Part shown: positions 12,046-64,000 of the stretch, piece after piece
Layout: every line of letters starts with the position of its first letter
How positions within the stretch are numbered: position 1 is the first letter of the stretch
Assembly (NCBI GenBank): GCA_018383815.1
Contig: JAHAWU010000002.1
Coordinates: 2,650 to 66,649, forward strand
Reading direction: 5' to 3'
DNA length: 64,000 nucleotides
Source: Candidatus Jordarchaeia archaeon
GTDB taxonomy: Archaea; Asgardarchaeota; Jordiarchaeia; Jordiarchaeales; Jordiarchaeaceae
Position numbers and translations under genes: made by a program
Notes under the pieces: model-generated
What the model saw: the letters and a program-made list of their open reading frames with translations, nothing else
Told to the model about the DNA's origin: nothing
Database searches by the model: none

Positions 12046-12315
12046 ATGTTGAGTGAAAATGTTATTTCTGTGAAGCTTTCCCGAGACATATTTGAGGCTT
12101 GGAAGGCTATGGCTGAGAAGCATGGCTGGGAACTATCCAAGCTTCTTAGCTTTGTTTTAACTCAGTTCGTGGTTCAGGATGGTTCAATATACAGTGGGAC
12201 ATGGAAAAGTAAGGGTGTAGACTTGGGGAGGAAGGTAATAATTGAGTGGCCCACCTTTCCTTCCACAATAACTAAGGCCGAGATAATAGATGTAAAGTTT
12301 GAGGAGATGAGGTGA
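12046..12315 (+). CDS. Small hypothetical protein, possibly ribbon-helix-helix-like
   Basis: 89-aa ORF that directly abuts the next ORF. No confident motif. Confidence 0.3.
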   Translation: MLSENVISVKLSRDIFEAWKAMAEKHGWELSKLLSFVLTQFVVQDGSIYSGTWKSKGVDLGRKVIIEWPTFPSTITKAEIIDVKFEEMR

Positions 12316-12561
12316 ATGGCTGAGTGGCGGGGAAAACCTAGAAGAAGTCTAGGTGAATTGTCACCCTACTGGCACAGGAGCCCTTACCTAGCAAAGTTCT
12401 TTGTGCAGGCAGCGATGCCTAAAGTGATGGCAACCCTTTCCTACGAGATGTTTGAAAGACTCACAGAGGCTGTGGAGAGGAGGTTTGGAACGTTTTCGGC
12501 CATCACTTTAAATAAGGCAGTAATTGAGGCTTTGGAGAAATGGATAGCCGAGCAAAGATAG
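12316..12561 (+). CDS. Small hypothetical protein, possibly ribbon-helix-helix-like
   Basis: 81-aa ORF starting on the base after the previous stop. 'ATLSYEMFERLTEAVERRFG...AVIEALEKWIAEQ' is RHH-like. Confidence 0.3.
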   Translation: MAEWRGKPRRSLGELSPYWHRSPYLAKFFVQAAMPKVMATLSYEMFERLTEAVERRFGTFSAITLNKAVIEALEKWIAEQR

Positions 12562-27282: not shown

Positions 27283-27575
27283 CCAGCCAAAAAAACATAG
27301 TCACACAGACAAAGGATCTGAGACTGCGCCCAGATAGTTCTGTCGGAACTGGTTTTTAGTTTGCTAGGTAGCACGCAAGAAGTAGGAATAATCGTTAAAT
27401 GAATAGAATTTGGCGACCTAGAACATTCTCCACACCTATGTTTCTAACAAGATCCACCTTCACCACGTCCTTTATGAATCTAAAACCCATATAATTATTG
27501 TCTGAGTACATATAGCTCCTCGCTTTCAATAAGACGCTAAACCAAGAAACAACACCTTTGGATATGCGATAAATT

Positions 27576-28049
27576 TCAGAATGCGAGGTTGTAGTTTTTG
27601 TTTTTCAGAAAATCGGTGAATTCTCTAAAATCATCTGTTTCCGCAAGCTCGTAGAAAACGGTTTTAAACCCGCTTTTCTCAAACCCTTTATCTGGGGTGT
27701 ATATTTCTGTTAGATTTAAACGCTTCATGACCGCGGAGCTTATGAGATCCGATAAACCCAGGGGAAGCATTCCATACATATTGCAAGCATTCTCCTGATC
27801 CTCTAGGGTTGGCGGGATTATGTCAAGTGAGTAAAGGGACCTGAGGGCTTTAATGAAGATGGGAAGTGCGTTAGCCTTGTAGTGGGAGAGCCATATTAAC
27901 ACTTCGTCTTTGACAAGAGTTGTTGTGACGGCTGGCTCCATGTTTTCAATCCGGTATAGAATGTATCCACTGATAGCTGCCTCCAGAGATAATCCCTTCT
28001 TAGAGGCAGACATCCACTTTATAAAAACCGGAGCATCAACGAACCTCAC
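27576..28049 (-). CDS. vapC: PIN-domain VapC-type toxin
   Basis: About 157 aa; 'RFVDAPVFIKW' at the N-terminus with a distal acidic region 'YTPDKGFE'. It lies immediately downstream of an AbrB-type antitoxin gene. Confidence 0.7.
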   Translation of the reverse strand: MRFVDAPVFIKWMSASKKGLSLEAAISGYILYRIENMEPAVTTTLVKDEVLIWLSHYKANALPIFIKALRSLYSLDIIPPTLEDQENACNMYGMLPLGLSDLISSAVMKRLNLTEIYTPDKGFEKSGFKTVFYELAETDDFREFTDFLKNKNYNLAF

Positions 28050-28301
28050 TCAATCACCCAGTTTTTCTTTGAGTTCATTTAGGAAGAGTTTGTCACCAGC
28101 GACATCCGAGGACGCCTCCTCCGCTATCCCGGCGAGCATCATAAGTGGGCTTTCCTTCATAAAGGATATGATCAGCTTTCCACCCTTGACTTCTAGGTCC
28201 AGTTCATCACCAATTTTAATGTTAAATCTTGACCTAACCTCTTGCGGAAGGGATACCCTGTAACCGCTCAACACCTTAACTTTGTATTTATAAAAAGACA
28301 T
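28050..28301 (-). CDS. vapB: AbrB/SpoVT-type VapB antitoxin
   Basis: 'YRVSLPQEVRSRFNIKIGDELDLEVKGGKLII' is a swapped-hairpin AbrB motif. Its stop abuts the vapC GTG. Confidence 0.75.
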   Translation of the reverse strand: MSFYKYKVKVLSGYRVSLPQEVRSRFNIKIGDELDLEVKGGKLIISFMKESPLMMLAGIAEEASSDVAGDKLFLNELKEKLGD

Positions 28302-28853
28302 TATACATCACCAAAATACAATAAAATAATACAATTAAAAGGATTTCGTTTATAGTTGATCGGGGATGTAGTTTCGCTCGATTTCGCCTCTGGAAGGAGC
28401 TTTTATGGGCTTCCCTTCCGATTTAGAACCTCCAAATAAGGAGTAGAATCGGACGAATCTATATCACCGTAGTTATTTACGGAAATTTCAGATCTCTTCT
28501 ATAATTGCTGGATGTGCAGAAAGAAGCTTAATGTTTCCTTCTTTTGCTTTGAGCTTGAAAGAAAATGGAATAGACTTCCATTTTAGCAAGAAGAGGGAAT
28601 AATAATACTTTCTTAATTCGCAGAGCTAAATAGGATATGTTCAGGCAACACTCCTATTTTAGTATATGTTCTTGTAGCTTGAAAAAACCATTTTCCCATT
28701 TTTAACAAATTTATGTGGAGGGAGCAAAAGAGAAGCGGACTAACTCAGTGCCACATCTCCAAAAAGCAATGCTTCTGGAGTTTTGTTTAAACAGGCAGGC
28801 AGAGTAAATCCTTCTTTAATTTTTTGGGCCTCTGCTTCTTGTGTTTATATTTT

Positions 28854-29292
28854 TTAGGGTTTTTGTTTTTTCCACCATTCGTAGATTGCTTTGCAAATCT
28901 TTAGAGTGTATTCTGCATTTGTTATACCTTCCTCTGCATCTCTTCTGGTGTATAATTGTTCTGGGGGTTTGAGGGTGGCCTCGTCTCCATAAAATGCGGG
29001 GCCACGTTTTAGAACCAGGTTCAAGCTTATTCTCTTTATTTCGGGCAATGTATTCAGTATTTCTTGTGAGGGGTTCAGTTTTTGGAGGGCTGATTCAAAG
29101 AAGTCTCCTACCTCGTGTCTCCTTGGGTAATCCAGACCAAGCAACCTCAGGGTGGCCTTCAGTGCTAGCTCCACGGATTCTTGTGCCCTTCTCACAGCTC
29201 TGTGGTGGAGTCCCTGCTTTAACGCGTTTTTAGCCTCTCTAAGTGTATTCGCTGTCCCTGAAGTAGGCTTTCGACATTTCCTCGGTGTTCAT
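28854..29292 (-). pseudogene. HEPN domain gene with an N-terminal frame disruption
   Basis: The ATG at 29292 overlaps the MNT stop (ATGA). It reads MNTEEMSKAYFRDSEYT and then TAG (29239-29241). The rest of the HEPN domain, 'LREAKNALKQGLHHRAVRRAQESVELALKATLRLLGLDYPRRHEV...', continues in another frame from 29243. Joined, the two parts align with the intact paralog at 5308-5727. Confidence 0.6.
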
Positions 29293-29795
29293 ATTTCTAG
29301 AATCTCTCCCCTTTTAATTGTGGGTTTAAGTATCCAGTACCAAGTGCCGTCTGGGAGATAAACTTTTTTGGAGCCTAGTTCTTGGAGCCTTTTCTCCAGC
29401 TTTTTTAGTACGTTTTCCATGAAGCCGTTTCTGTCAAGGATTATTACGCTGTCTTCAATCATGTCAAGGTAGATTGGGCGGTTTTTTTCTGCTTCTTCTG
29501 GGCGGAGGGGGTGGAACTGTATCCAAGTGTGTTGCCCCGGTGGTTTCTTCTCCTCAGCCCATAGTTGGAGTACTATGTCCACTAGTTTGTCTGTTCTACT
29601 CATAGATTTCTCAAATTCTTCGCATACTAAGAGTACATCTATGTCGCTGTTTCCCTTTGCTTCCCCCCGGGCTACGGAGCCGAAAATGACAATTGAAACC
29701 AGTTTCTCCCCAAACCTCGCAACTAAAAGTTCGGTGAGCCTCCGTACTATCCACCGATATTCCTTTTGGGGAATGGACTCAATCCCATATTTCAA
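29289..29795 (-). CDS. MNT nucleotidyltransferase, partner of the disrupted HEPN gene
   Basis: 'GSVARGEAKGNSDIDVLLV'. It is paralogous to the ORF at 4787-5296 along its whole length. Confidence 0.8.
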   Translation of the reverse strand: MKYGIESIPQKEYRWIVRRLTELLVARFGEKLVSIVIFGSVARGEAKGNSDIDVLLVCEEFEKSMSRTDKLVDIVLQLWAEEKKPPGQHTWIQFHPLRPEEAEKNRPIYLDMIEDSVIILDRNGFMENVLKKLEKRLQELGSKKVYLPDGTWYWILKPTIKRGEILEI

Positions 29796-29952
29796 CCAAA
29801 ACCACCTATAATATCCGCAAGAGTTGGCTCTAAAAAACTTGTCGGCATCACAAATATAACAAAAAAGTCCTGAATTCTAGTTTTGGATATTGGTGTGGAC
29901 AGAGCTTGGGTTAGTGCCAAATGTTTTTGTGTTTCTATTATCTTTGCTACAA

Positions 29953-39086: not shown

Positions 39087-39875
39087 TTAGCACGTGGTGA
39101 TAATTCCTCCAGTTACATTAATTGCCTGGCCGGTCATAAAGTCAGAATCCTCCGATGCTAGGAACACTGCAACCTTGGCCACATCTTCTGGCTGCCCTAT
39201 TCTTCCCAAAGGTGTGAAGAAGATGTACTCTTGAAGTATACTTTCGGGAGTACTCCCATCGCCCCTGAGCTCAGCGGTCCACTTCAGTTCACGTTCCTGC
39301 ATACTTGTGGAAATCAATCCCGGACAAATGGCGTTTACATTTATCTTGTAGGGAGCCAACTCTAAAGCTATGCTTTTCACATAGGCTATTACACCTGCTT
39401 TACTTGCATTGTAGTGGGCATACATGGGCGCTCCAGTTTTACCCGCCATAGAGGCGGTACAGACTATTTTGCCACCTCCACCCTGTTCAATCATCCTTTT
39501 TGCCACCGCTTGTGTGCAGAGGAACATACCCTTCAGATTGACATCCATGTTCAAGTCCCATTTCTCCTCAGGCATATCTAAAACGAATTCCATGGAGGAT
39601 ACTCCGGCATTGCTCATTAGTATGTCTATCCTGCCGAATTCCTGCACAGTTTCCCTAACCATTTGTTCCACTTGGGATTTTTTTGTTACATCAACTTTGA
39701 CCGCAAGAGACTTTCTTCCAAGCAACTGAATTTCTTTAGCAGTTTGCTTTGCTTCTTCCAAGTTCAGGTCGGCTACAACGACGTGTGCTCCTTCCCTGGC
39801 AAATCTTAGTGCTATGGCTTTACCTATTCCCCTTCCTGCACCTGTGACTATTGCTATTTTTTCTTTTAGCCTAAT
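39087..39875 (-). CDS. Short-chain dehydrogenase/reductase (SDR), apparently starting at a non-canonical ATT
   Basis: The cofactor motif 'IAIVTGAGRGIGKAIA' is encoded upstream of the first canonical start (TTG 39761). ATT 39873-39875 lies 7 nt downstream of GGAGGTG. Also present are 'NAGV' and the catalytic 'YNASKAG'. Confidence 0.75.
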   Translation of the reverse strand: MRLKEKIAIVTGAGRGIGKAIALRFAREGAHVVVADLNLEEAKQTAKEIQLLGRKSLAVKVDVTKKSQVEQMVRETVQEFGRIDILMSNAGVSSMEFVLDMPEEKWDLNMDVNLKGMFLCTQAVAKRMIEQGGGGKIVCTASMAGKTGAPMYAHYNASKAGVIAYVKSIALELAPYKINVNAICPGLISTSMQERELKWTAELRGDGSTPESILQEYIFFTPLGRIGQPEDVAKVAVFLASEDSDFMTGQAINVTGGIITTC

Positions 39876-39896
39876 TTTTACCCACCTCCAATTTGC

Positions 39897-40697
39897 TCAT
39901 AGAGCTTTCTTTGTGACTATGGTCATGTTACGGCTGAATGTTACCTCATCATCCCACAAACGATAGGTTTCACTGCTAAAATAGTCCCCCCTCTCTGAGG
40001 CAAGGAAAACCGCCATTTTGGCTATCGCCTCTGGCTCCCCCTCTATTTGGTGTAGGGGTGAGAAAAGTACAATGGTGTCCTCATCTACTGGCGGACCCGC
40101 TTTTAGTTGGGCTCCCAGTTTTAGCTCAGTATTTTCGATGAAACCAGGACATATTATGTTCACCTTTATGTTTTTGCCAGCCAATTCTAAGCCCAGACTG
40201 CGCGTAAATCCTATCACTGCACCCATCGAAGCCGCATAATGTGATAGTTGTTCCTGCCCCGATACTCCCGCAGTGGAGGAAACTATTATTATCTTGCCCC
40301 TATTGTTCTTAACCATCTCCCTGGCCACGGCTTTGCAGAGAAAGAATACACCCTTGGCATTATAGTCTACCACGGTGTCCCACTGCTCCTCTGATAAGTC
40401 CACCATTTTGACCAGTGAGGCAGCTCTGGTCACATTGACCAATATGTCAATTGTTCCGAAACCCTCCAATGCTTTTTTAACCATATCCTTTATCTCAGCT
40501 TCGCTGCGGATATCGATTTTTAGACCTAGGGCTTTTCCACCCCTAGATTTTATTTCTGAGGCCGTCTTTTCGGCGAATTCCAAATAGAAATCTCCAACTA
40601 CAACCTTTGCTCCTTCACTTGCAAACTCTAGGGCGACCCTTCTTCCTATACCCGAGCCGCCTCCAACTATAACTGCAGTTTTATCAGCCAAACTCAT
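39897..40697 (-). CDS. Short-chain dehydrogenase/reductase (SDR)
   Basis: 'TAVIVGGGSGIGRRVALEF' and the catalytic 'YAASMGAV'. The start is placed at the internal ATG (MSLADK), preceded by GGAG. Confidence 0.85.
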   Translation of the reverse strand: MSLADKTAVIVGGGSGIGRRVALEFASEGAKVVVGDFYLEFAEKTASEIKSRGGKALGLKIDIRSEAEIKDMVKKALEGFGTIDILVNVTRAASLVKMVDLSEEQWDTVVDYNAKGVFFLCKAVAREMVKNNRGKIIIVSSTAGVSGQEQLSHYAASMGAVIGFTRSLGLELAGKNIKVNIICPGFIENTELKLGAQLKAGPPVDEDTIVLFSPLHQIEGEPEAIAKMAVFLASERGDYFSSETYRLWDDEVTFSRNMTIVTKKAL

Positions 40698-40716
40698 TTT
40701 GCTCCAACTCCACACG

Positions 40717-42234
40717 CTAGTCAACCTCAAAGAGGCTACATAGATCTTCATATAGTTTAATGTACTTTTGGTAGGCTTTACCGTATACATCAAAGTTTTT
40801 GGAGTTAGGCTCGTACTTTCTTTTTATGCCCACCATTTTGCTAGCTGCCTCTCTAACGTCCTTATAGATTCCCACTGCCTTCCCGGCTAGTATGGCTGCT
40901 CCTAGGCTGGCGGCTTCCTCTATTTTGGTTTGGTAAACAGTTTTCCGAGTTATGTCCGCCTTAATCTGGTTCCACACCGGGCTTCTGGCCCCTCCACCTA
41001 GTACTCTTATTTCTTTTACTGGGATTTTCATGTCTTCTAGAACATCTATGTTTCTTCTCACAATGAAGGCTATGGCTTCCATTATGGCCCGGGCAAAGTG
41101 GGCCTTGGTGTGTTTCAGAGTGAAGCCAAAGAACACACCTTTCGCCTTGGGGTTAGCCTCTGGTGCCATGGCTCCCTGCAGGTGTGGAAGCATAACTAGG
41201 CCGTCGCTTCCAGGAGGTACTTTCTCCACCTCATCACCTATTACATTGTAGGGGTCAGTCTCCAAGAGTTCGGCTACACTCATCTCTTCTTTTGCAAAGT
41301 TATCTCTGTACCATCTGAGAACCATACCCCCCGTGGTAAAGGTGTGGGCCATATAAGTATCAGGTATTCCATAGTAGTGGATGGGCATTCTACCCTGCTT
41401 GTCAAAAACTGGTTTTTCCAGAACCGCACAGATGGCCAGAGCTGCTCCCGTGTTTTCAGAAAACATTCCCGGCTCCACATTTCCCACCCCTATAGCACCG
41501 CACACCTGGTCTAATGCTCCTGTAGTTACCATGGTTTTGGGGGAGAGGCCCAGTTCCTCAGCCACTTCTGGCTTGAGTTCTGCCACCGGTTCCCCGGACT
41601 CCCTTATGGAGGGCAGTTCATCCTGTGTTATTCCCAGGAAGTCCAGCATTTCGTCCCAGTACTTTTTAGTGATAATGTTCCAGTAGAGTGTGGAGCAAAG
41701 CAGTGAACCTTCAGCTACCAGTTCGCCGGTCATGCGGTATATTAGGTAGTCTTCTATGAGAAGAAACTTGTCTACCTTGTCAAATATGTTCTTCTCGTTT
41801 CTTTTCAGCCAGAAGATTTTTGACGCTGGCCAGGTGGGAACTATTTTCACCTGTCCCGAAATCTTAAATGAGTACTGGTTGGGGTCGAACTTTTGTGATA
41901 GGATGTCCGCCTCTTCCTGTGCGCGGTTATCCAGCCAGATTATGGCGTTTCTCAGGGGCTTTCCTTCTTTATCTATGAAGAATAGTGTTTCTCCCTGGGC
42001 GGATATTCCCAGAGCCTTTATGTTTTCGGGGTTGACCTTCGTTTGTTCCAGAACCTCTCTAACGCCATCCTTGAATGCTTTCCAGAAAGTTTCTGCGGGA
42101 AGCTCAACCGCGAGGGGGGTGGGGGTGAGCAGTTTATACTCTTGAGTGGATATTCCTTGAAGCTCGCCCTGGGTGTTAAAAAGGGCTATTTTTGAGGCTG
42201 TGGTTCCTGCATCCAGAGTGAGAATATAATCCAA
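40717..42234 (-). CDS. FGGY-family carbohydrate kinase (xylulokinase / glycerol kinase-like)
   Basis: 'ILTLDAGTTASKIALF' phosphate-1 motif, 'GISAQGETL', and C-terminal 'GGGARSPVWNQIKADI'. TTG start 9 nt after an AAGGAGG SD. Confidence 0.85.
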   Translation of the reverse strand: MDYILTLDAGTTASKIALFNTQGELQGISTQEYKLLTPTPLAVELPAETFWKAFKDGVREVLEQTKVNPENIKALGISAQGETLFFIDKEGKPLRNAIIWLDNRAQEEADILSQKFDPNQYSFKISGQVKIVPTWPASKIFWLKRNEKNIFDKVDKFLLIEDYLIYRMTGELVAEGSLLCSTLYWNIITKKYWDEMLDFLGITQDELPSIRESGEPVAELKPEVAEELGLSPKTMVTTGALDQVCGAIGVGNVEPGMFSENTGAALAICAVLEKPVFDKQGRMPIHYYGIPDTYMAHTFTTGGMVLRWYRDNFAKEEMSVAELLETDPYNVIGDEVEKVPPGSDGLVMLPHLQGAMAPEANPKAKGVFFGFTLKHTKAHFARAIMEAIAFIVRRNIDVLEDMKIPVKEIRVLGGGARSPVWNQIKADITRKTVYQTKIEEAASLGAAILAGKAVGIYKDVREAASKMVGIKRKYEPNSKNFDVYGKAYQKYIKLYEDLCSLFEVD

Positions 42235-46206: not shown

Positions 46207-48225
46207 TCACGTTCTCTTACCCAGAATAACAGCAGCCCCCACAATGGCGATCAGTAGAAGAACCGCAACCCCACCAAACATCAAATTAGAAGAAGACTGC
46301 TGACCCGCCAACAACTGACCCAAACCAACCAACATGAAATAATCCAAAGGCTCAACTTCCCAAACAGTAATTCTATTCTGACTCGCATTATAAGCAGGAT
46401 CCACTTCTCCACGCTGATCAATCATAAGATACCTCACAAGACCCAGCCACTCTGGAACCGCCGTGTCCGGGTCGCCTTGAACTAGGGTAACTAGGATAAG
46501 GGGAACATACTCACTTGGATCGGTAGGTAGAGGATGTCCTGTTTGGTTCCTCATTGTTACCGCGAACATGGGGTACAGTTTTCCTATCTCTGGAATTAGG
46601 AGCGCTCCTTCTAGGTTTATGCATACTCTGTACAGTTTGCTGTCATCTATGGGGGCATAGGTTCCATTCTGGAAATCTTGCTCAATGCTCACTATCCGAG
46701 AACCGGGGGGTCCAAGAGTAGTATAGGTCACCCTCAGTCCCGAAATTTGCATGAAGTAGTCGCCACCAGCATACAGTGCAAACTCCATTGCCTTCTTAAC
46801 ATCACTGCCAAGGAGGTAGAAGCTGGTCAAAAGCCAACCATAATAAGGCCCCTGGTAGGGTACCCCTCCTAAGGGCACCACGCTCACCGCATCATAAAGC
46901 GTTATGTTCCTACTAGCAGGCTCCAATCCATGCCTTATAACACCGCTCGGCACAAATGCAAAGTCCACATAGGGATCACCCGCAGAAACATTGTTGGCCT
47001 GCCACCTTATGGCATCCGCCACCAAGTCACCAATCGGAGTCTCACCACCTGGAACATAGCCAGCACCCGGAACACCAGTTGTGGTATTAGCAATCACAGT
47101 ACCCGTTGCAGGTATCCCCATATCACCAAGAGTAGCATCTATTCCTGCACGATAAATTCCAATTAGACCCGCTACAGGTGCGTATTCTTGTATTGTGTCA
47201 TTTATATGTATTGGTGTCCAACTTCTCACGGTGACACCCTTGCCAGGGTTGTTATCTGGGTTTACAGTTATTTCGAGTTTACCCAAGTATTCGCCCAGAG
47301 CCAATGCGTCAGCTATGGTTGTGTTTCCCACAATTATTGGGGTTGGCGTCAACTCGTGGTCGTGGCCACTGAGTATTAAGTCGATGCCTGGAACCTGCTG
47401 GGCGAGAACCACATCGCTTTCCCATCCGCTGTGGCTGAGGCATATGATGAGGTCAATGTCTGGGTCAGACTTTAGGTAAGCTACCTGTTGTCGAGCAGTC
47501 TCTATTGGGTCTAAGATATTATAATGTCCCGTGAAGAACATTGTGGCTATTGCGCCGTATCCTATTACCGAGAAGAGGCCAATCTTCACCCCGTTTACTG
47601 TCATCGTGGCGTTAGGCTTTATAAATGCCCCAAGGTTGTAAACATCATTAGTCAAATTCAAGTTTGAACACAGGATAAGTGGCATATTTGCAAGTCCACC
47701 CAAGGTGGAATTGGTATTATTGAGAATCAAAAATAGTCCATGGTCACTGTAGTCAAACTCATGGTTCCCCAAACAAATGGCGGTATAATTCAGGAAGCCA
47801 GGACTCATCAGGTGGAGTTCGGGTGAAGCTTGGATTGGACCTGCGAATGAGAATGGTGTACCCATCAGAAAGTCACCGACTTCAAACACTAGAACCGGTT
47901 CACCAGCACTACCTCTTATGTCATTTATTTTTGTAGCTATGCGTGCCATTCCACCCACGGTGGGATCATCGCCAGTTCCGGTTGCGTTGTAGTCGGCTAG
48001 TGGCCAGGGTAGTAGTTCTGAGTGTAGGTCGCTGTGGAACAGAATTGTCATATTCACTGCGGCATTTTTACTTTGCATTGGGTTGTCTCCCTGTGTTCCC
48101 TGGTTGTAGGCTGCTATGAGTATACCGGAGCTTAGAGTGCCAGAGGTAGAGGTAATAATGGGAGCTGTTAAGGCTAGAATGAATAGTGTTGATACTATGA
48201 GGGCAGTAATTTTTGTTCGCTTCAT
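46207..48225 (-). CDS. Secreted, membrane-anchored 5'-nucleotidase / metallophosphoesterase (UshA-like)
   Basis: N-terminal signal/TM segment, 'ILFHSDLHSEL', 'CLGNHEFD' and 'LSGHDHE' metallophosphatase motifs, a 5'-nucleotidase-type C-domain and a C-terminal TM anchor. Confidence 0.8.
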   Translation of the reverse strand: MKRTKITALIVSTLFILALTAPIITSTSGTLSSGILIAAYNQGTQGDNPMQSKNAAVNMTILFHSDLHSELLPWPLADYNATGTGDDPTVGGMARIATKINDIRGSAGEPVLVFEVGDFLMGTPFSFAGPIQASPELHLMSPGFLNYTAICLGNHEFDYSDHGLFLILNNTNSTLGGLANMPLILCSNLNLTNDVYNLGAFIKPNATMTVNGVKIGLFSVIGYGAIATMFFTGHYNILDPIETARQQVAYLKSDPDIDLIICLSHSGWESDVVLAQQVPGIDLILSGHDHELTPTPIIVGNTTIADALALGEYLGKLEITVNPDNNPGKGVTVRSWTPIHINDTIQEYAPVAGLIGIYRAGIDATLGDMGIPATGTVIANTTTGVPGAGYVPGGETPIGDLVADAIRWQANNVSAGDPYVDFAFVPSGVIRHGLEPASRNITLYDAVSVVPLGGVPYQGPYYGWLLTSFYLLGSDVKKAMEFALYAGGDYFMQISGLRVTYTTLGPPGSRIVSIEQDFQNGTYAPIDDSKLYRVCINLEGALLIPEIGKLYPMFAVTMRNQTGHPLPTDPSEYVPLILVTLVQGDPDTAVPEWLGLVRYLMIDQRGEVDPAYNASQNRITVWEVEPLDYFMLVGLGQLLAGQQSSSNLMFGGVAVLLLIAIVGAAVILGKRT

Positions 48226-48847
48226 TTTCTTCTCTCCCTTACTTTGTTTTTTGGAATTGGAGAGGGCTCACAGGTTTAAACAAGTTTTTATTCAACTTTT
48301 AGGCAAGCACATTTGCGTAAATATTCTTTTAGCCCTTCTCCAACGCTTTATTATCAGTGTATTAGATATATAAAATTTTAGTTTCACTGTGGCGCAATGT
48401 GATATGTATGTTTTTTGCATGGGGGGTGTGTATTTTTTGTTGCGGGCTGCTTTTTAGAGGGAGGCTTTGAAAGCCTTCTTTTCCACATTCCAGCCATATA
48501 ATAGAAGTTTAGGAGGACATTTTTACATACCCCATAAAATCAAAAATACATACATGCTACTATACGCCACTTTAAGATTATGAAATATTGTTTAAACTCA
48601 TTTTTCGCGGATTTGAGAATCCTTTAGCGGGATTTGCGGAGCTTTCCTCCCCCCCACGCCAGTTCTTGAGAGAATAAATATACCGGGCCAGTGAAAACAC
48701 AACAACACCCCAAAACCATCAAGAAAAGCACAATCACCCAAATAACTTCGCAGAATCCGCTAAATACTAGTTTAAAATTAAACTGTTAGTATCTTGCCTA
48801 AAAAGTGGAAAAGGAGTTTTGATTTGGTTAAACTTTGCTAAGTTTTG

Positions 48848-48884
48848 GGAATAAAACGTCACCTGGATTTTTCGGTTTTATTCC
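48848..48884 (-). other. Perfect 10-bp-stem hairpin in the 3' UTR of the TGA-containing redoxin gene; candidate SECIS-like element or terminator hairpin
   Basis: RNA sense is GGAAUAAAAC-CGAAAAAUCCAGGUGAC-GUUUUAUUCC, starting 16 nt after the TAA. The internal part has 5'-GAA and 3'-GA, which could form tandem G.A pairs. No U-tract follows. Confidence 0.5.
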
Positions 48885-48900
48885 TTCCAAATCTCGGGTT

Positions 48901-49359
48901 TTAGGTTTCCAATTTTTTGATGGTTTCCAGTATTTCTTGGGTTTTGGGTATGTCGTGCATGGAGTCGCCGTAGTAGGCGTATTGTATTGTTCCCTGTTTG
49001 TCTATTATCAGTAGTGCGGGCATTCTTCCCAGTTTGCGTAGTATGATTTCTTGTTTTAGTAGTTTGGTGACTTTTTGTTCCTGATCATAGTATATGGGGT
49101 ATTTTCTTTTGGCGTATTTTGTTTCCAGCTTTTTGGCGTTTTCCAGCTTATCTACAGTAATGGGGTATAGGGCGGTGTTTAGCTGGTCGAAATCGTCGAT
49201 ATGGTTTGCCAGTCTGGCGACATGTCCCCTGCAGTAGGGTCAGGAGATTCCCCTCAGCAGGATTAGCACAACGTTTCTTTTTCCCTCGAATTCTCTGATG
49301 TTGACTGTTTCTCCTCTCGAGTTTGGTAGGCTGAATTCTGGTATCCTTGCGCCCACCAT
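48901..49359 (-). CDS. Redoxin/AhpC-TSA (thioredoxin-fold) protein with an in-frame TGA at the first Cys position of CxxC; candidate selenoprotein or very recent pseudogene
   Basis: Manual translation gives 152 codons from ATG 49359 to TAA 48901. The single internal stop is TGA 49240-49242, in 'NVVLILLRGIS-[TGA]-PYCRGHVARL'. Downstream, 'MPALLIIDKQGTIQYAYYG' is typical of the fold. It is absent from the ORF track because it is split by the TGA. An alternative GTG start lies at 49416. Confidence 0.6.
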
Positions 49360-49503
49360 TTGGAACTTATCCTTCGTTCTGCTACCACCTCCTCCACCTA
49401 TTAGAAAAATATCCACATGCTAAAATGTTTTAGACAATTTCTTTTTTAATCACATATAATTTAAAAAAGGGTTGGTTTTAGGTTATAGTGTTTTTTATTT
49501 GCT

Positions 49504-49633
49504 ATGAAAACGTGTTTTCATTCTTTGCCATGAAAAGCTTTTTCATGCTTTATCTGAAACGCTCTAGCGTATGTTGGTTTGCCATGAAAAACTTTTTCAT
49601 ACCTTTATCTGAAATGCTTTCAGCGTATGTTGG
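49504..49633. repeat. About 55-bp tandem repeat (2 copies plus a partial copy) carrying three ATGAAAA-N(1-3)-TTTTCAT palindromes
   Basis: The units are 49524-49577 and 49578-49633. The palindromes are 49504-49521 (ATGAAAAC GT GTTTTCAT), 49529-49547 (CATGAAAA GCT TTTTCATG) and 49584-49600 (ATGAAAAA C TTTTTCAT). Confidence 0.7.
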
Positions 49634-62167: not shown

Positions 62168-62896
62168 CTACCCGTATTTTTCTTTTACCCATGAGTAGAT
62201 TACTTCTAATTGTTTTTTGAGGCGTTGTTTTTGTTCAGGTGTCTTTCTAGATTTTGGTTTTTCAGAGGGAACCGCATATAGATCTAGTACAGAGCCCTGC
62301 GGTTTGTCTATGAACTTGATGGTTACAGGTGTGTCGCACTCGATGTCTTCTAGTGCGTAGCCCGCTTCTTCCATAGCTACTCGGAGTGCTATCAGAGTGT
62401 TGCAACCATCAATTCTTACGTATCCCAGCACGAATGGTAGCTGTGGTAGAAACGCCTCTGCGGCAAATCCGAGGATTGTGTAGCTGTGCAGGATGCCTTG
62501 GGGCTTTAACTCAATCCATTTTGTTTCTTCCAAGCTGCATTCTGGCCTCCAGCAGTGTGCTCTTGGTGGCAGGAATTTGTCTCCACACCTTGGGCATTGG
62601 GTGCCGTAGATTTTTTTCTCTAGTAAACCCTCAAAAAACTTTGATACTCTTCCGTAACTGTGATTGTACAATACGTCGTATGGCCTGTATACTCTCATGT
62701 ATCTTCTGGTTTCGAGCTTATCGATTCGTGGCCCCTCACTCGCTTCTATTATTCTGTATCCTGCTATCGACATTCTTCCCAAACTTCCCCAATCCTTAAA
62801 CTTGGAGTCTAATGGTTTCTCTTTGATAACCTTAACATTGTGACCTTGTTCGCCTATTTTTGGCCATTTAAAATTCTTTTCTTTTTTACTCATCAT
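62168..62896 (-). CDS. DUF35 family Zn-ribbon/OB-fold protein (long form), thiolase partner
   Basis: 'CPRCGDKFLPPRAHCWRPEC' Zn ribbon plus an OB-fold. It lies 4 nt downstream of a thiolase-like gene. Confidence 0.8.
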   Translation of the reverse strand: MMSKKEKNFKWPKIGEQGHNVKVIKEKPLDSKFKDWGSLGRMSIAGYRIIEASEGPRIDKLETRRYMRVYRPYDVLYNHSYGRVSKFFEGLLEKKIYGTQCPRCGDKFLPPRAHCWRPECSLEETKWIELKPQGILHSYTILGFAAEAFLPQLPFVLGYVRIDGCNTLIALRVAMEEAGYALEDIECDTPVTIKFIDKPQGSVLDLYAVPSEKPKSRKTPEQKQRLKKQLEVIYSWVKEKYG

Positions 62897-62899
62897 TTT

Positions 62900-64000
62900 T
62901 CACCTCATAAGTATTGCTACAGCTATGGCGGTTCCTGTTCCTGCATGGCTATGCAGCAATGCGGTTTCCGCGCCGTCCACCTGGGTTTTGCTGCTGAAAT
63001 GTTTTTCAGGGATCATCTGTTTCAACTGCCATAGTAACTCCACACACTGCCCTATGGCTGTGGAGCCCACCGGATGCCCCATACCTTCTAGTCCCCCACT
63101 AGGGTTTACTGCAACTTCACTGTCAACGTATACCTGGCCCTCACGGATTAGATTTTTTCCTTCTCCCACATTGCAAAGCATTAAATCCTCATAGGTTTGT
63201 AGCTCACTTGAATCGTAGGCATCGTGAATTTCGATTACATCTATTTCTTTAAGTGGGTCTACTATTCCCGCCATTTTATAGGCTGTTTTTGCAGCTACCC
63301 TACAAGCTCCGAAATTTGAAATCTCAGGGTAAGGCTCTCTAGGTCTTATGGCATAATCGGGATAGAGTTTCTTGGAATCTCTATTTATGGCAGCCCAAGT
63401 AGGACTATCAGGCCTGTCACCCGGCCTCATGAAGTCAGTACCTAAACCTATTCCGGCAATCCAAACAGGTTCATCGGTGTAATTTCTAGCAACATCCTCA
63501 GAAGCTAAAACTATACAGGAAGCTCCCTCGGTTAAAAGGCAACAATCCATGGTTTTCAGCGGCCAGGCTAAAAGTCTGGAGTTTAACACATCGTCAACAG
63601 TAATTTCTTTTCCTCCATTTTCCTGTGGCCATTGAGCGTAGGGATTATCTAACGCGTAATTTTTATTCTTCACGGCTATGAGAGCAAAATCCTCCTCAGT
63701 GTCTCCATAAAGGTACATGTGCCTAGCCGCCATAGCCGCATAGTACCCGGTGTAGTATCCACCAGCGGGAAACTCAAAATCAGTGTCTGAGGCTAGGGCT
63801 ATGAATTCATTCGCCTTAGCTGTACCAACTTCACCCTGCTTTTCCACTCCAGTAACCAGACAAACTTCAGAAAGCCCAGAAGCAACCAGCGCAAAACCTG
63901 CTCGTATCGCCGCTAACGGTCCAGCTCCCCCATCTTCAACCCTGAAGACCGGTTTTGGCGTTAAACCCAGATAGTCATTTATTATCCAAGCCATGGCTAA
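62900..64000 (-). CDS. Thiolase-like (SCP-x-type) protein; N-terminus lies beyond the window end
   Basis: The frame is open to base 64000. 'CLVTGVEKQGE', 'NPSGGLEGMGHPVGSTA', 'HSHAGTG'. It is missing the N-terminal ~50-60 aa expected for thiolases. Confidence 0.8.
   Translation of the reverse strand, partial: LAMAWIINDYLGLTPKPVFRVEDGGAGPLAAIRAGFALVASGLSEVCLVTGVEKQGEVGTAKANEFIALASDTDFEFPAGGYYTGYYAAMAARHMYLYGDTEEDFALIAVKNKNYALDNPYAQWPQENGGKEITVDDVLNSRLLAWPLKTMDCCLLTEGASCIVLASEDVARNYTDEPVWIAGIGLGTDFMRPGDRPDSPTWAAINRDSKKLYPDYAIRPREPYPEISNFGACRVAAKTAYKMAGIVDPLKEIDVIEIHDAYDSSELQTYEDLMLCNVGEGKNLIREGQVYVDSEVAVNPSGGLEGMGHPVGSTAIGQCVELLWQLKQMIPEKHFSSKTQVDGAETALLHSHAGTGTAIAVAILMR

Follow-up and report, generated by a model that had tools for sequence, protein, structure and literature searches.

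Can a reading frame be translated in full when its single in-frame TGA falls on the first residue of a CxxC redox box and, if so, which signal in the message would direct the ribosome to do it? This question is posed by a minus-strand redoxin gene in a 64-kb stretch of archaeal DNA (64,000 nucleotides, hereafter the window), for which a reading of the letters alone (the original prediction) had proposed an archaeal selenoprotein followed by a hairpin in its 3' untranslated region (3' UTR) or, alternatively, a nonsense mutation.

The prxL gene and its product

Translation of the minus strand reproduced the hidden open reading frame (ORF), i.e., 152 codons from ATG to TAA with one internal stop, a TGA in the context ...LLRGIS-U-PYCRGH... 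(Table 1). The ATG at 49359 is a possible start of this gene, prxL, but translation could instead begin at 49377, where an ACG codon occupies the position of the family start codon (ATG in locus L006, TTG in L007, and ACG in the window and in L002 to L005) and would add TKDKFQ to the product. The KDKFQ codons upstream of the ATG are conserved among relatives, with synonymous changes. The publicly called product is a 103-aa C-terminal fragment (P0002). A protein database search placed the exact prxL product on contig JAHAWT010000001.1 of assembly GCA_018383875.1, an assembly of which no mention was found in the literature searched.

Table 1. Features of the prxL locus, in positions of the window
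Feature	Position	Strand	Basis or remark
prxL coding sequence	48901..49359	-	ATG 49359 to TAA 48903-48901; thioredoxin-fold Prx-like oxidoreductase
In-frame UGA, codon 40, almost certainly read as selenocysteine	49240..49242	-	TGA in 80/80 loci
Redox box U-P-Y-C, codons 40-43	49231..49242	-	Translation; aligns to 3hdc WCPYC
Shine-Dalgarno-like GGTGGAGGAGGTGG (49398-49385) and ACG codon (49377-49375)	49375..49398	-	Possible true start
Three-helix 3'-UTR element, probable prxL-specific SECIS	48821..48893	-	Minimum-free-energy fold, covariation, covariance model
Helix P1	48893-48887 / 48827-48821	-	Minimum-free-energy fold and covariation
Helix P2	48884-48875 / 48857-48848	-	Minimum-free-energy fold and covariation
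Helix P3	48845-48840 / 48835-48830	-	Minimum-free-energy fold and covariation
Hairpin of the original prediction (helix P2 and its 17-nt loop)	48848..48884	-	Sequence, fold
T-rich tract (TTTT, TTTTT) just past the element	48800..48812	-	Sequence

The gene lies between those of a BKACE-family enzyme (upstream) and a metallophosphatase/5'-nucleotidase (downstream), neither of which has a link to selenium. Within the 64-kb window, ARAGORN predicted no tRNA, hence no tRNASec, and genes of the Sec machinery, i.e., those for PSTK, SepSecS, the Sec elongation factor, and SelD, were likewise absent. A scan of TGA-separated ORF pairs over the same stretch disclosed no further TGA-interrupted genes, selenoproteins, or decayed genes; the pairs that it returned were ordinary adjacent genes (SDR/SDR, nucleotidyltransferase/HEPN, thiolase/DUF35, and AbrB/PIN), which lends no support to the earlier remark that several genes nearby are decaying.

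The AhpC/TSA-redoxin layout read from the letters was borne out by profile searches. With Cys placed at position 40, two Pfam families, AhpC-TSA (E = 1.9e-21) and Redoxin (7.4e-17), match the protein over its full length. Its relatives in the PDB are thioredoxin-family and BCP proteins, the best being the thioredoxin-family structure 3hdc, in which the WCPYC motif aligns with S-U-PYC; the TGA falls on the first Cys of the CxxC box, as had been claimed. The closest NCBIfam model is "SelL-related redox protein," with a match (1.7e-16) that does not reach the cut-off of that model. Cys43, three residues after U40, is the sole cysteine among the 152 residues. The T/S-x-x-Cp signature typical of peroxiredoxins is absent from the product, which reads R-G-I-S-U-P-Y-C and has neither T nor S at position -3 relative to U, consistent with the published observation that PrxL proteins are devoid of typical Prx features. 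The published definition of PrxL (Cys confined to a CxxC-type box; PMC4989117) describes the window protein, which is 82% identical over 151 residues to the PrxL of Jordarchaeia_GCA_019056875 (supplementary data of PMC11227280).

To read the codon directly, we relied on DNA from GTDB species-representative genomes rather than on deposited proteins. TGA occupies the Sec column in all 80 homologous loci recovered (64 from Asgard archaea, with 46 to 95% identity, and 16 from Chloroflexota or Sumerlaeota, with 32 to 41%), and none of them has another in-frame stop before the terminal one. The nearest loci belong to a Freyarchaeota metagenome-assembled genome (MAG; 95%) and a Jordarchaeia MAG (89%), both Asgard, kingdom Promethearchaeati; the host is a Jordarchaeia/Freyarchaeia-type Asgard archaeon. 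Most of the codon differences on the upstream side of the TGA are synonymous (18, against 4 nonsynonymous, in the comparison with L004; 21 against 5 with L006), and the part downstream of it stays in frame with respect to close relatives. Judged by these alignments, both halves of prxL are under purifying selection, and the TGA represents a conserved sense codon rather than a nonsense mutation. A genuinely recoded redoxin, as originally favored, is thus what the homologous loci support.

A search at the protein level returned 72 relatives, comprising 51 with W at the Sec column, 20 C-terminal fragments, and one with Cys, encoded by TGT. The W-bearing proteins are full length and all come from contigs under 3 kb; the fragments (84 to 103 aa, P0002 among them) come from longer contigs. 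This pattern is explained by gene callers meeting an in-frame TGA, and it exposes a general database artifact by which PrxL entries are either truncated or given Trp at the Sec position. For the window itself, the selenoprotein call corrects one misannotated MAG gene.

A three-helix element after the stop codon

The hairpin noted earlier exists as described: 16 nt past the stop codon, GGAAUAAAAC pairs perfectly with GUUUUAUUCC over 10 bp, enclosing a 17-nt loop, CGAAAAAUCCAGGUGAC. It is conserved and covaries. As the description of a regulatory element it is nevertheless incomplete, for it represents only helix P2 of a three-helix junction. The minimum-free-energy fold of the 83 nt analyzed in the window is exactly P1, P2, and P3, with -18.0 kcal/mol versus -9.3 +/- 2.4 for shuffled sequences (z = -3.6; 0 of 200 shuffles as good).

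The element is ~73 nt long here and corresponds to a conserved block of ~75 nt in the Asgard loci aligned after the stop codon. It starts 7 nt after the TAA in the window and 0 to 7 nt after the stop codon in the Asgard relatives. Its 5' part consists of GAUUUGG (the 5' strand of P1), 1 to 3 nt, the P2 hairpin of 9 to 11 bp, and an A-rich linker; its 3' part consists of the short P3 hairpin with a nearly invariant UAGCCA loop, 1 to 2 nt, and CCAAAUC (the 3' strand of P1). Over 55 aligned homologous 3' UTRs, 88.6% of the cells are paired under this structure, and 18 of its 23 pairs have changed on both sides. Compensatory cells number 89, compared with 23 in shuffles, a value that none of 500 shuffles attained, and slid registers of the same structure reach only 34 to 58% pairing. 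Compensations in P1 include UUUAG/CUAAA and GUUUGG/CCAAAC, a G-C to C-G exchange is found in P3, and all three helices are retained, though differing in sequence, in the cultured strain MK-D1. Owing to the AU-rich helices (34% GC), RNAalifold by itself detected P2 but neither P1 nor P3. An alternative helix between the 3' strands of P2 and P1 was rejected, as its pairing (74.7%) and weak covariation fall short of those of P1 (91.9% paired).

When the window and its three closest relatives were compared over the 675-nt 3' intergenic region, conservation was confined to the first ~90 nt past the stop codon until the promoter of the next gene. It falls to zero past the T-rich tract, which likely marks the transcript end; the relatives also show T-runs after the element.

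A covariance model built from the element alignment (R1) matches the 64-kb window once, with 68.8 bits (E = 3.6e-12). The 16 bacterial Sec-prxL loci gave no match, nor did the loci of Sec-containing mvhD genes (in which the mvhD TGA was confirmed) or the sequence after the lone Cys (TGT) homologue, a gene whose 3' end abuts a convergent gene. The model was further applied to metagenome contigs picked by a DNA pattern (P1 plus the P3 loop), among which it scored 36 matches. Of these, 30 lie immediately behind an ORF for PrxL whose redox box contains UGA; 26 such ORFs are of the UPxC/A/S type, and 4 are paralogues with UxxU (di-Sec). The other 6 are too near a contig end for the redox box to be seen, and a PrxL-type ORF ending at the element is visible in 5 of them. 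P2 and P3 covary again in this independent set. Its occurrence is restricted to prxL genes that encode Sec. Since the element is also the sole conserved stretch of the 3' intergenic region, it is the best candidate for the selenocysteine insertion sequence (SECIS), and this association suggests that it probably is the prxL SECIS. The proposed tie between the hairpin and Sec insertion thus probably holds, with the hairpin as one part of this larger structure.

Decoding of the UGA codon

Taken together, we consider it highly probable (roughly 0.9) that the locus represents prxL from a Jordarchaeia/Freyarchaeia-type Asgard archaeon, encoding a Sec-containing peroxiredoxin-like oxidoreductase whose UGA is recoded, most probably by means of the three-helix element. 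By analogy with the Sec machinery published for the class, Sec is almost certainly inserted at this UGA. The archaeal Sec-specific elongation factor would bring in Sec-tRNASec to decode it, while the rest of the genome would read UGA as stop. The ~73-nt element would direct the recoding, with P2 as its central helix, and form the 3' end of the mRNA. Sec would be the attacking residue of a thiol oxidoreductase within U-P-Y-C; fold and motif suggest that it attacks a peroxide or disulfide substrate and that Cys43 resolves the intermediate via a selenenylsulfide.

Two rival readings deny that Sec is inserted at all. The gene might be a pseudogene, i.e., an ordinary CxxC redoxin recently hit by a TGY-to-TGA nonsense mutation, for which one substitution in TGC or TGT suffices and which would fit the 103-aa fragment of the public annotation. 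This second branch of the original prediction has next to no probability left, because the codon is TGA at the same column in 80/80 loci down to 32% identity, bacteria included, the frame is clean with mainly synonymous substitutions upstream of the TGA, and the conserved 3' element accompanies TGA and is missing from the TGT homologue, in line with the check on homologues that had been proposed. Alternatively, the UGA might be read through by a route other than Sec, with near-cognate Trp or Cys or under a reassigned code. Gene callers using code 4 do return full-length proteins with W at this column, and Sec machinery is not seen in the window. Nonetheless, UGA ends 5 of the 32 long ORFs of the window and also several prxL orthologues, so the genetic code is not reassigned and the recoding is specific to this site; moreover, the codon coincides precisely with the catalytic Cys of the redox box, a position at which Trp would eliminate activity, and Sec machinery is published for the class (PMC9723677). 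We thus regard such read-through as very improbable.

A further alternative accepts the selenoprotein but takes the three-helix element for a terminator, a stability determinant, or another regulatory structure, with the Sec signal located elsewhere. The canonical AUGA/GA core is indeed missing from the helix base, T-runs follow the element, and no protein partner of it is known. Against this stand its place as the only conserved sequence of the 3' intergenic region, its start 0 to 7 nt past the stop of every Asgard Sec-prxL gene, its absence after the Cys homologue, and the lack of any canonical lokiSECIS within 300 nt downstream or in the 2-kb flanks; published lokiSECIS elements likewise abut the stop codon. 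We deem this alternative unlikely, though less improbable than either reading without Sec, and we retain the three-helix element as the probable prxL SECIS.

Comparison with known selenoproteins and SECIS elements

At the protein level, nothing substantive separates the window gene from the PrxL of other Asgard archaea (PMC4989117, PMC11227280, PMC9723677), with which it shares the fold, the UxxC box with Sec first, the single Cys, the lineage, and the 3'-UTR element that follows the stop codon directly. The first description of PrxL dates from 2016, when five selenoprotein families of Lokiarchaeota were presented, PrxL among them as a Prx-like protein having UxxC or UxxU as its redox box and Cys nowhere else (PMC4989117). 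Jordarchaeia were defined in 2021 as fatty-acid oxidizers equipped with Sec biosynthesis and insertion genes, tRNASec, and the selenoproteins HdrA, peroxiredoxin, and MvhD (PMC9723677). By 2024, PrxL had been recorded in 43% of Sec-using Asgard archaea, with a Jordarchaeia PrxL included in the supplementary alignment (PMC11227280). That this family exists, uses a Sec codon, and occurs in Jordarchaeia is therefore already published and the window gene is no discovery, contrary to the expectation that a selenoprotein in this acyl-CoA-metabolizing archaeon would be notable. The residual interest, and the only possibly new point, lies in the unusual and well-supported three-helix architecture of the 3' element.

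Among bacterial Prx-like selenoproteins, the homologues from Chloroflexota share the TGA column with the window prxL but are without the 3' element, and SelL has UxxU instead of UPYC. Bacterial Prx-like selenoproteins presumably use a SECIS inside the coding sequence.

The element was not recognized by existing models. Rfam returned no SECIS or other credible family, either at the gathering threshold over the whole window or at E <= 10 on positions 48200-49500. The SECIS of Methanococcus and Methanopyrus, defined by a GAA_A internal bulge flanked by a GC-rich lower helix of 10 bp and a GC upper helix of 3 bp, shares with the prxL element its 3'-UTR site and the occurrence of GAA, which lies in the loop here; the bulge and the GC-rich helices are absent from the prxL element. 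The likeness to this type seen in the original prediction is therefore not supported. As to the GA quartet of Lokiarchaeal and eukaryotic elements, to which a likeness was also drawn, AUGA/GA is lacking at the helix base and GA...GUGA is present in the P2 loop.

The lokiSECIS, or eukaryote-like SECIS, is laid out as AUGA, a 9-bp helix, an 11-nt A-rich loop ending in AG, and GA. A regular expression for this canonical form (AUGA, helix, loop, GA/AA) found essentially nothing in the 300 nt downstream of 76 prxL genes, nor on both strands of all loci with their 2-kb flanks and of the window. Sec-containing mvhD served as the positive control and yielded AUGA (with the stop codon inside), N, a helix of 8 to 9 bp, a loop of 12 to 14 nt, N, and GA; in the mvhD genes of related organisms, a second hairpin follows the canonical element. 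It has been stated that AUGA always precedes the stem (PMC4989117). The prxL loci examined here do not fit this statement.

Two ways of accommodating a canonical core were rejected. A 9-11-9 layout running from the loop AUGA to the nucleotides before P1 pairs in 51.7% of cells, which is the level of shuffles, and a K-turn at the P1/P2 junction is incompatible with the pairing of the G and A that open P2, which join C and U and covary. The prxL element nonetheless shares with lokiSECIS the site right after the stop codon and the presence of a second hairpin. Whereas lokiSECIS has the AUGA/GA quartet at the helix base, P2 is closed at this end by covarying Watson-Crick pairs, and the prxL element adds the outer closing helix P1 and the near-invariant UAGCCA loop of P3. 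Loops of P2 measure 11 to 17 nt over the family (17 nt in the window) and are A-rich at the 5' side; Loki-type members, with a 9-bp P2 and an 11- to 12-nt loop ending in AG, fit the lokiSECIS in helix and loop size, unlike the window with its longer loop.

In the clade of the window, GA and (A/G)UGA reside in the apical loop, so that the element looks like the canonical form turned inside out. The P2 loop of the window carries GA (48873-48872) and GUGA (48862-48859), both at a distance of one nucleotide from the helix, and among 55 family members 24 have both the 5' GA and the 3' UGA, 14 only the UGA, and 12 neither. A 5' GA and a 3' UGA flanking a helix constitute the K-loop arrangement, as in archaeal box C'/D' motifs bound by L7Ae. 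P2 shares with box C'/D' K-loops this pair of motifs, the one-nucleotide distance to the helix, and the short closing loop, but it has no guide sequences, and the motif is restricted to 24/55 members. Because a quarter to half of the family is without the motif, we go no further than to suggest that the GA/GUGA of the P2 loop may be a K-loop-type protein-binding site.

It is conceivable, although we would sooner expect it to be wrong than right, that the prxL element is a distinct and not properly described SECIS, i.e., a three-way junction in which Watson-Crick pairs replace the K-turn quartet and which, in about half of the family including the window, carries GA...(A/G)UGA in the apical loop as a circularly permuted lokiSECIS. 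In strand order, the permuted form would begin with RUGA and N, continue with 10 nt of helix strand, and pass into an A-rich segment; N and GA would come after the partner strand. The entry point of the mRNA would then be the usual apical loop, and a K-loop would cap the K-turn. The K-turn core, of which the prxL element is devoid, stands behind the argument that Lokiarchaeota bridge archaeal and eukaryotic SECIS, and how the element is recognized would bear on what binds SECIS in archaea, be it by way of a K-loop in some lineages or otherwise. If the proposal is true, one Sec machinery would read two topologically different signals in one organism, namely the canonical form on mvhD and a permuted or K-turn-less form on prxL.

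Sec retention and stored sequences across the PrxL family

The TGA at the Sec column of PrxL, the thioredoxin-fold Prx-like selenoprotein of the window, is kept in bacterial homologues from Chloroflexota (Anaerolineae) and Sumerlaeota (L066-L081) that share 32-41% identity with it. The Asgard three-helix 3' element, the probable prxL SECIS, is absent from these bacterial loci. This pattern would fit an ancient Sec state in the family as well as a transfer from one domain to the other. An annotation artefact affects the whole PrxL family: among the protein-database matches (P0001-P0072), 51 have Trp in place of Sec, TGA having been translated as W on short contigs, and another form of storage, as C-terminal fragments, concerns 20 homologues, including the window's own gene product.

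The redox box itself varies. One subfamily reads U-P-Y-A/S/T (codon about 43; L039, L043, L048, L049, L051, L053, L054, L056, L059, L060, L064, L065), i.e., Sec is present without a resolving Cys, and it retains the three-helix element with a different P2 loop. Di-Sec paralogues carry a UxxU box, e.g., U-G-H-U (listed loci L090, L113, L022, L148, L154, L103). In L090, such a paralogue and a UxxC prxL copy lie in tandem (105-584 and 780-1250). L113 and L022 have two three-helix elements apiece, with about 600 nt between copies (1790-1868 and 2455-2534 in L022), which suggests that both loci have the UxxU/UxxC tandem of L090.

Elsewhere in the window, same-frame ORF pairs split by one TGA (Table) were considered as further selenoprotein candidates and rejected, as they are adjacent separate genes. 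These pairs are ordinary neighbours, e.g., SDR/SDR and thiolase/DUF35, and are not decayed genes.

Coordinates of features in the window and in related loci
Feature	Position	Strand	Remark
Shine-Dalgarno-like GGAGGAGGTGG and ACG codon	window 49375-49398	minus	possible non-canonical prxL start
Palindromes ATGAAAA-N3-4-TTTTCAT	window 49504-49521, 49530-49546, 49584-49600		upstream of prxL promoter region
P3 loop	window 48836-48839; columns 60-66 of A3 (alignment of prxL 3' elements)		family motif UAGCCA; UAGCA in the window
Same-frame ORF pairs split by one TGA	window 39090-40823, 28857-29876, 12046-12558, 62171-64000, 27540-28334		respectively SDR/SDR; nucleotidyltransferase/HEPN; unnamed small ORFs; thiolase/DUF35; AbrB/PIN
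Canonical lokiSECIS hairpins	L082 1845-1905, L083 1830-1890, L086 963-1030		downstream of Sec-containing mvhD

Start and upstream region of prxL

The Shine-Dalgarno-like sequence, which lies 8 nt 5' of the ACG codon, is conserved between the window and the close relatives L002-L007 (at about 1940-2000). At the start position, ACG is found in the window and L002-L005, ATG in L006 (Atabeyarchaeia) and TTG in L007; Loki-type prxL genes start with MKDKF at the matching position, and the KDKFQ codons following ACG are kept with synonymous changes. ACG is therefore a possible non-canonical start codon of prxL. Further upstream, a 28-nt direct repeat with 54 nt spacing contains two of the three palindromes, of which there are no further copies in the 64 kb and none upstream of prxL in L002-L007. 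They may form an array of operators, or may be a small repeat that was inserted here.

Dual UGA and the 3' elements

Several prxL orthologues (L010, L011, L014, L019, L020, L022, L033, L034, L040) terminate with UGA, so that a single mRNA would use UGA for Sec (at about codon 40) and also as its stop codon (at about codon 153), which directly adjoins the putative SECIS; in some, this stop supplies the first bases of helix P1. In helix P3, the loop motif UAGCCA is nearly invariant over Asgard classes while the stem covaries, and the loop is one nucleotide shorter (UAGCA) in the window and L002. Canonical lokiSECIS hairpins, as published for Lokiarchaeota, occur downstream of Sec-containing mvhD genes of related organisms. 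Each is followed by a second short hairpin; two of these three second hairpins share the loop GUAAGCG. The mvhD UGA stop codon falls inside the AUGA core in two of the three loci (L083 and L086).
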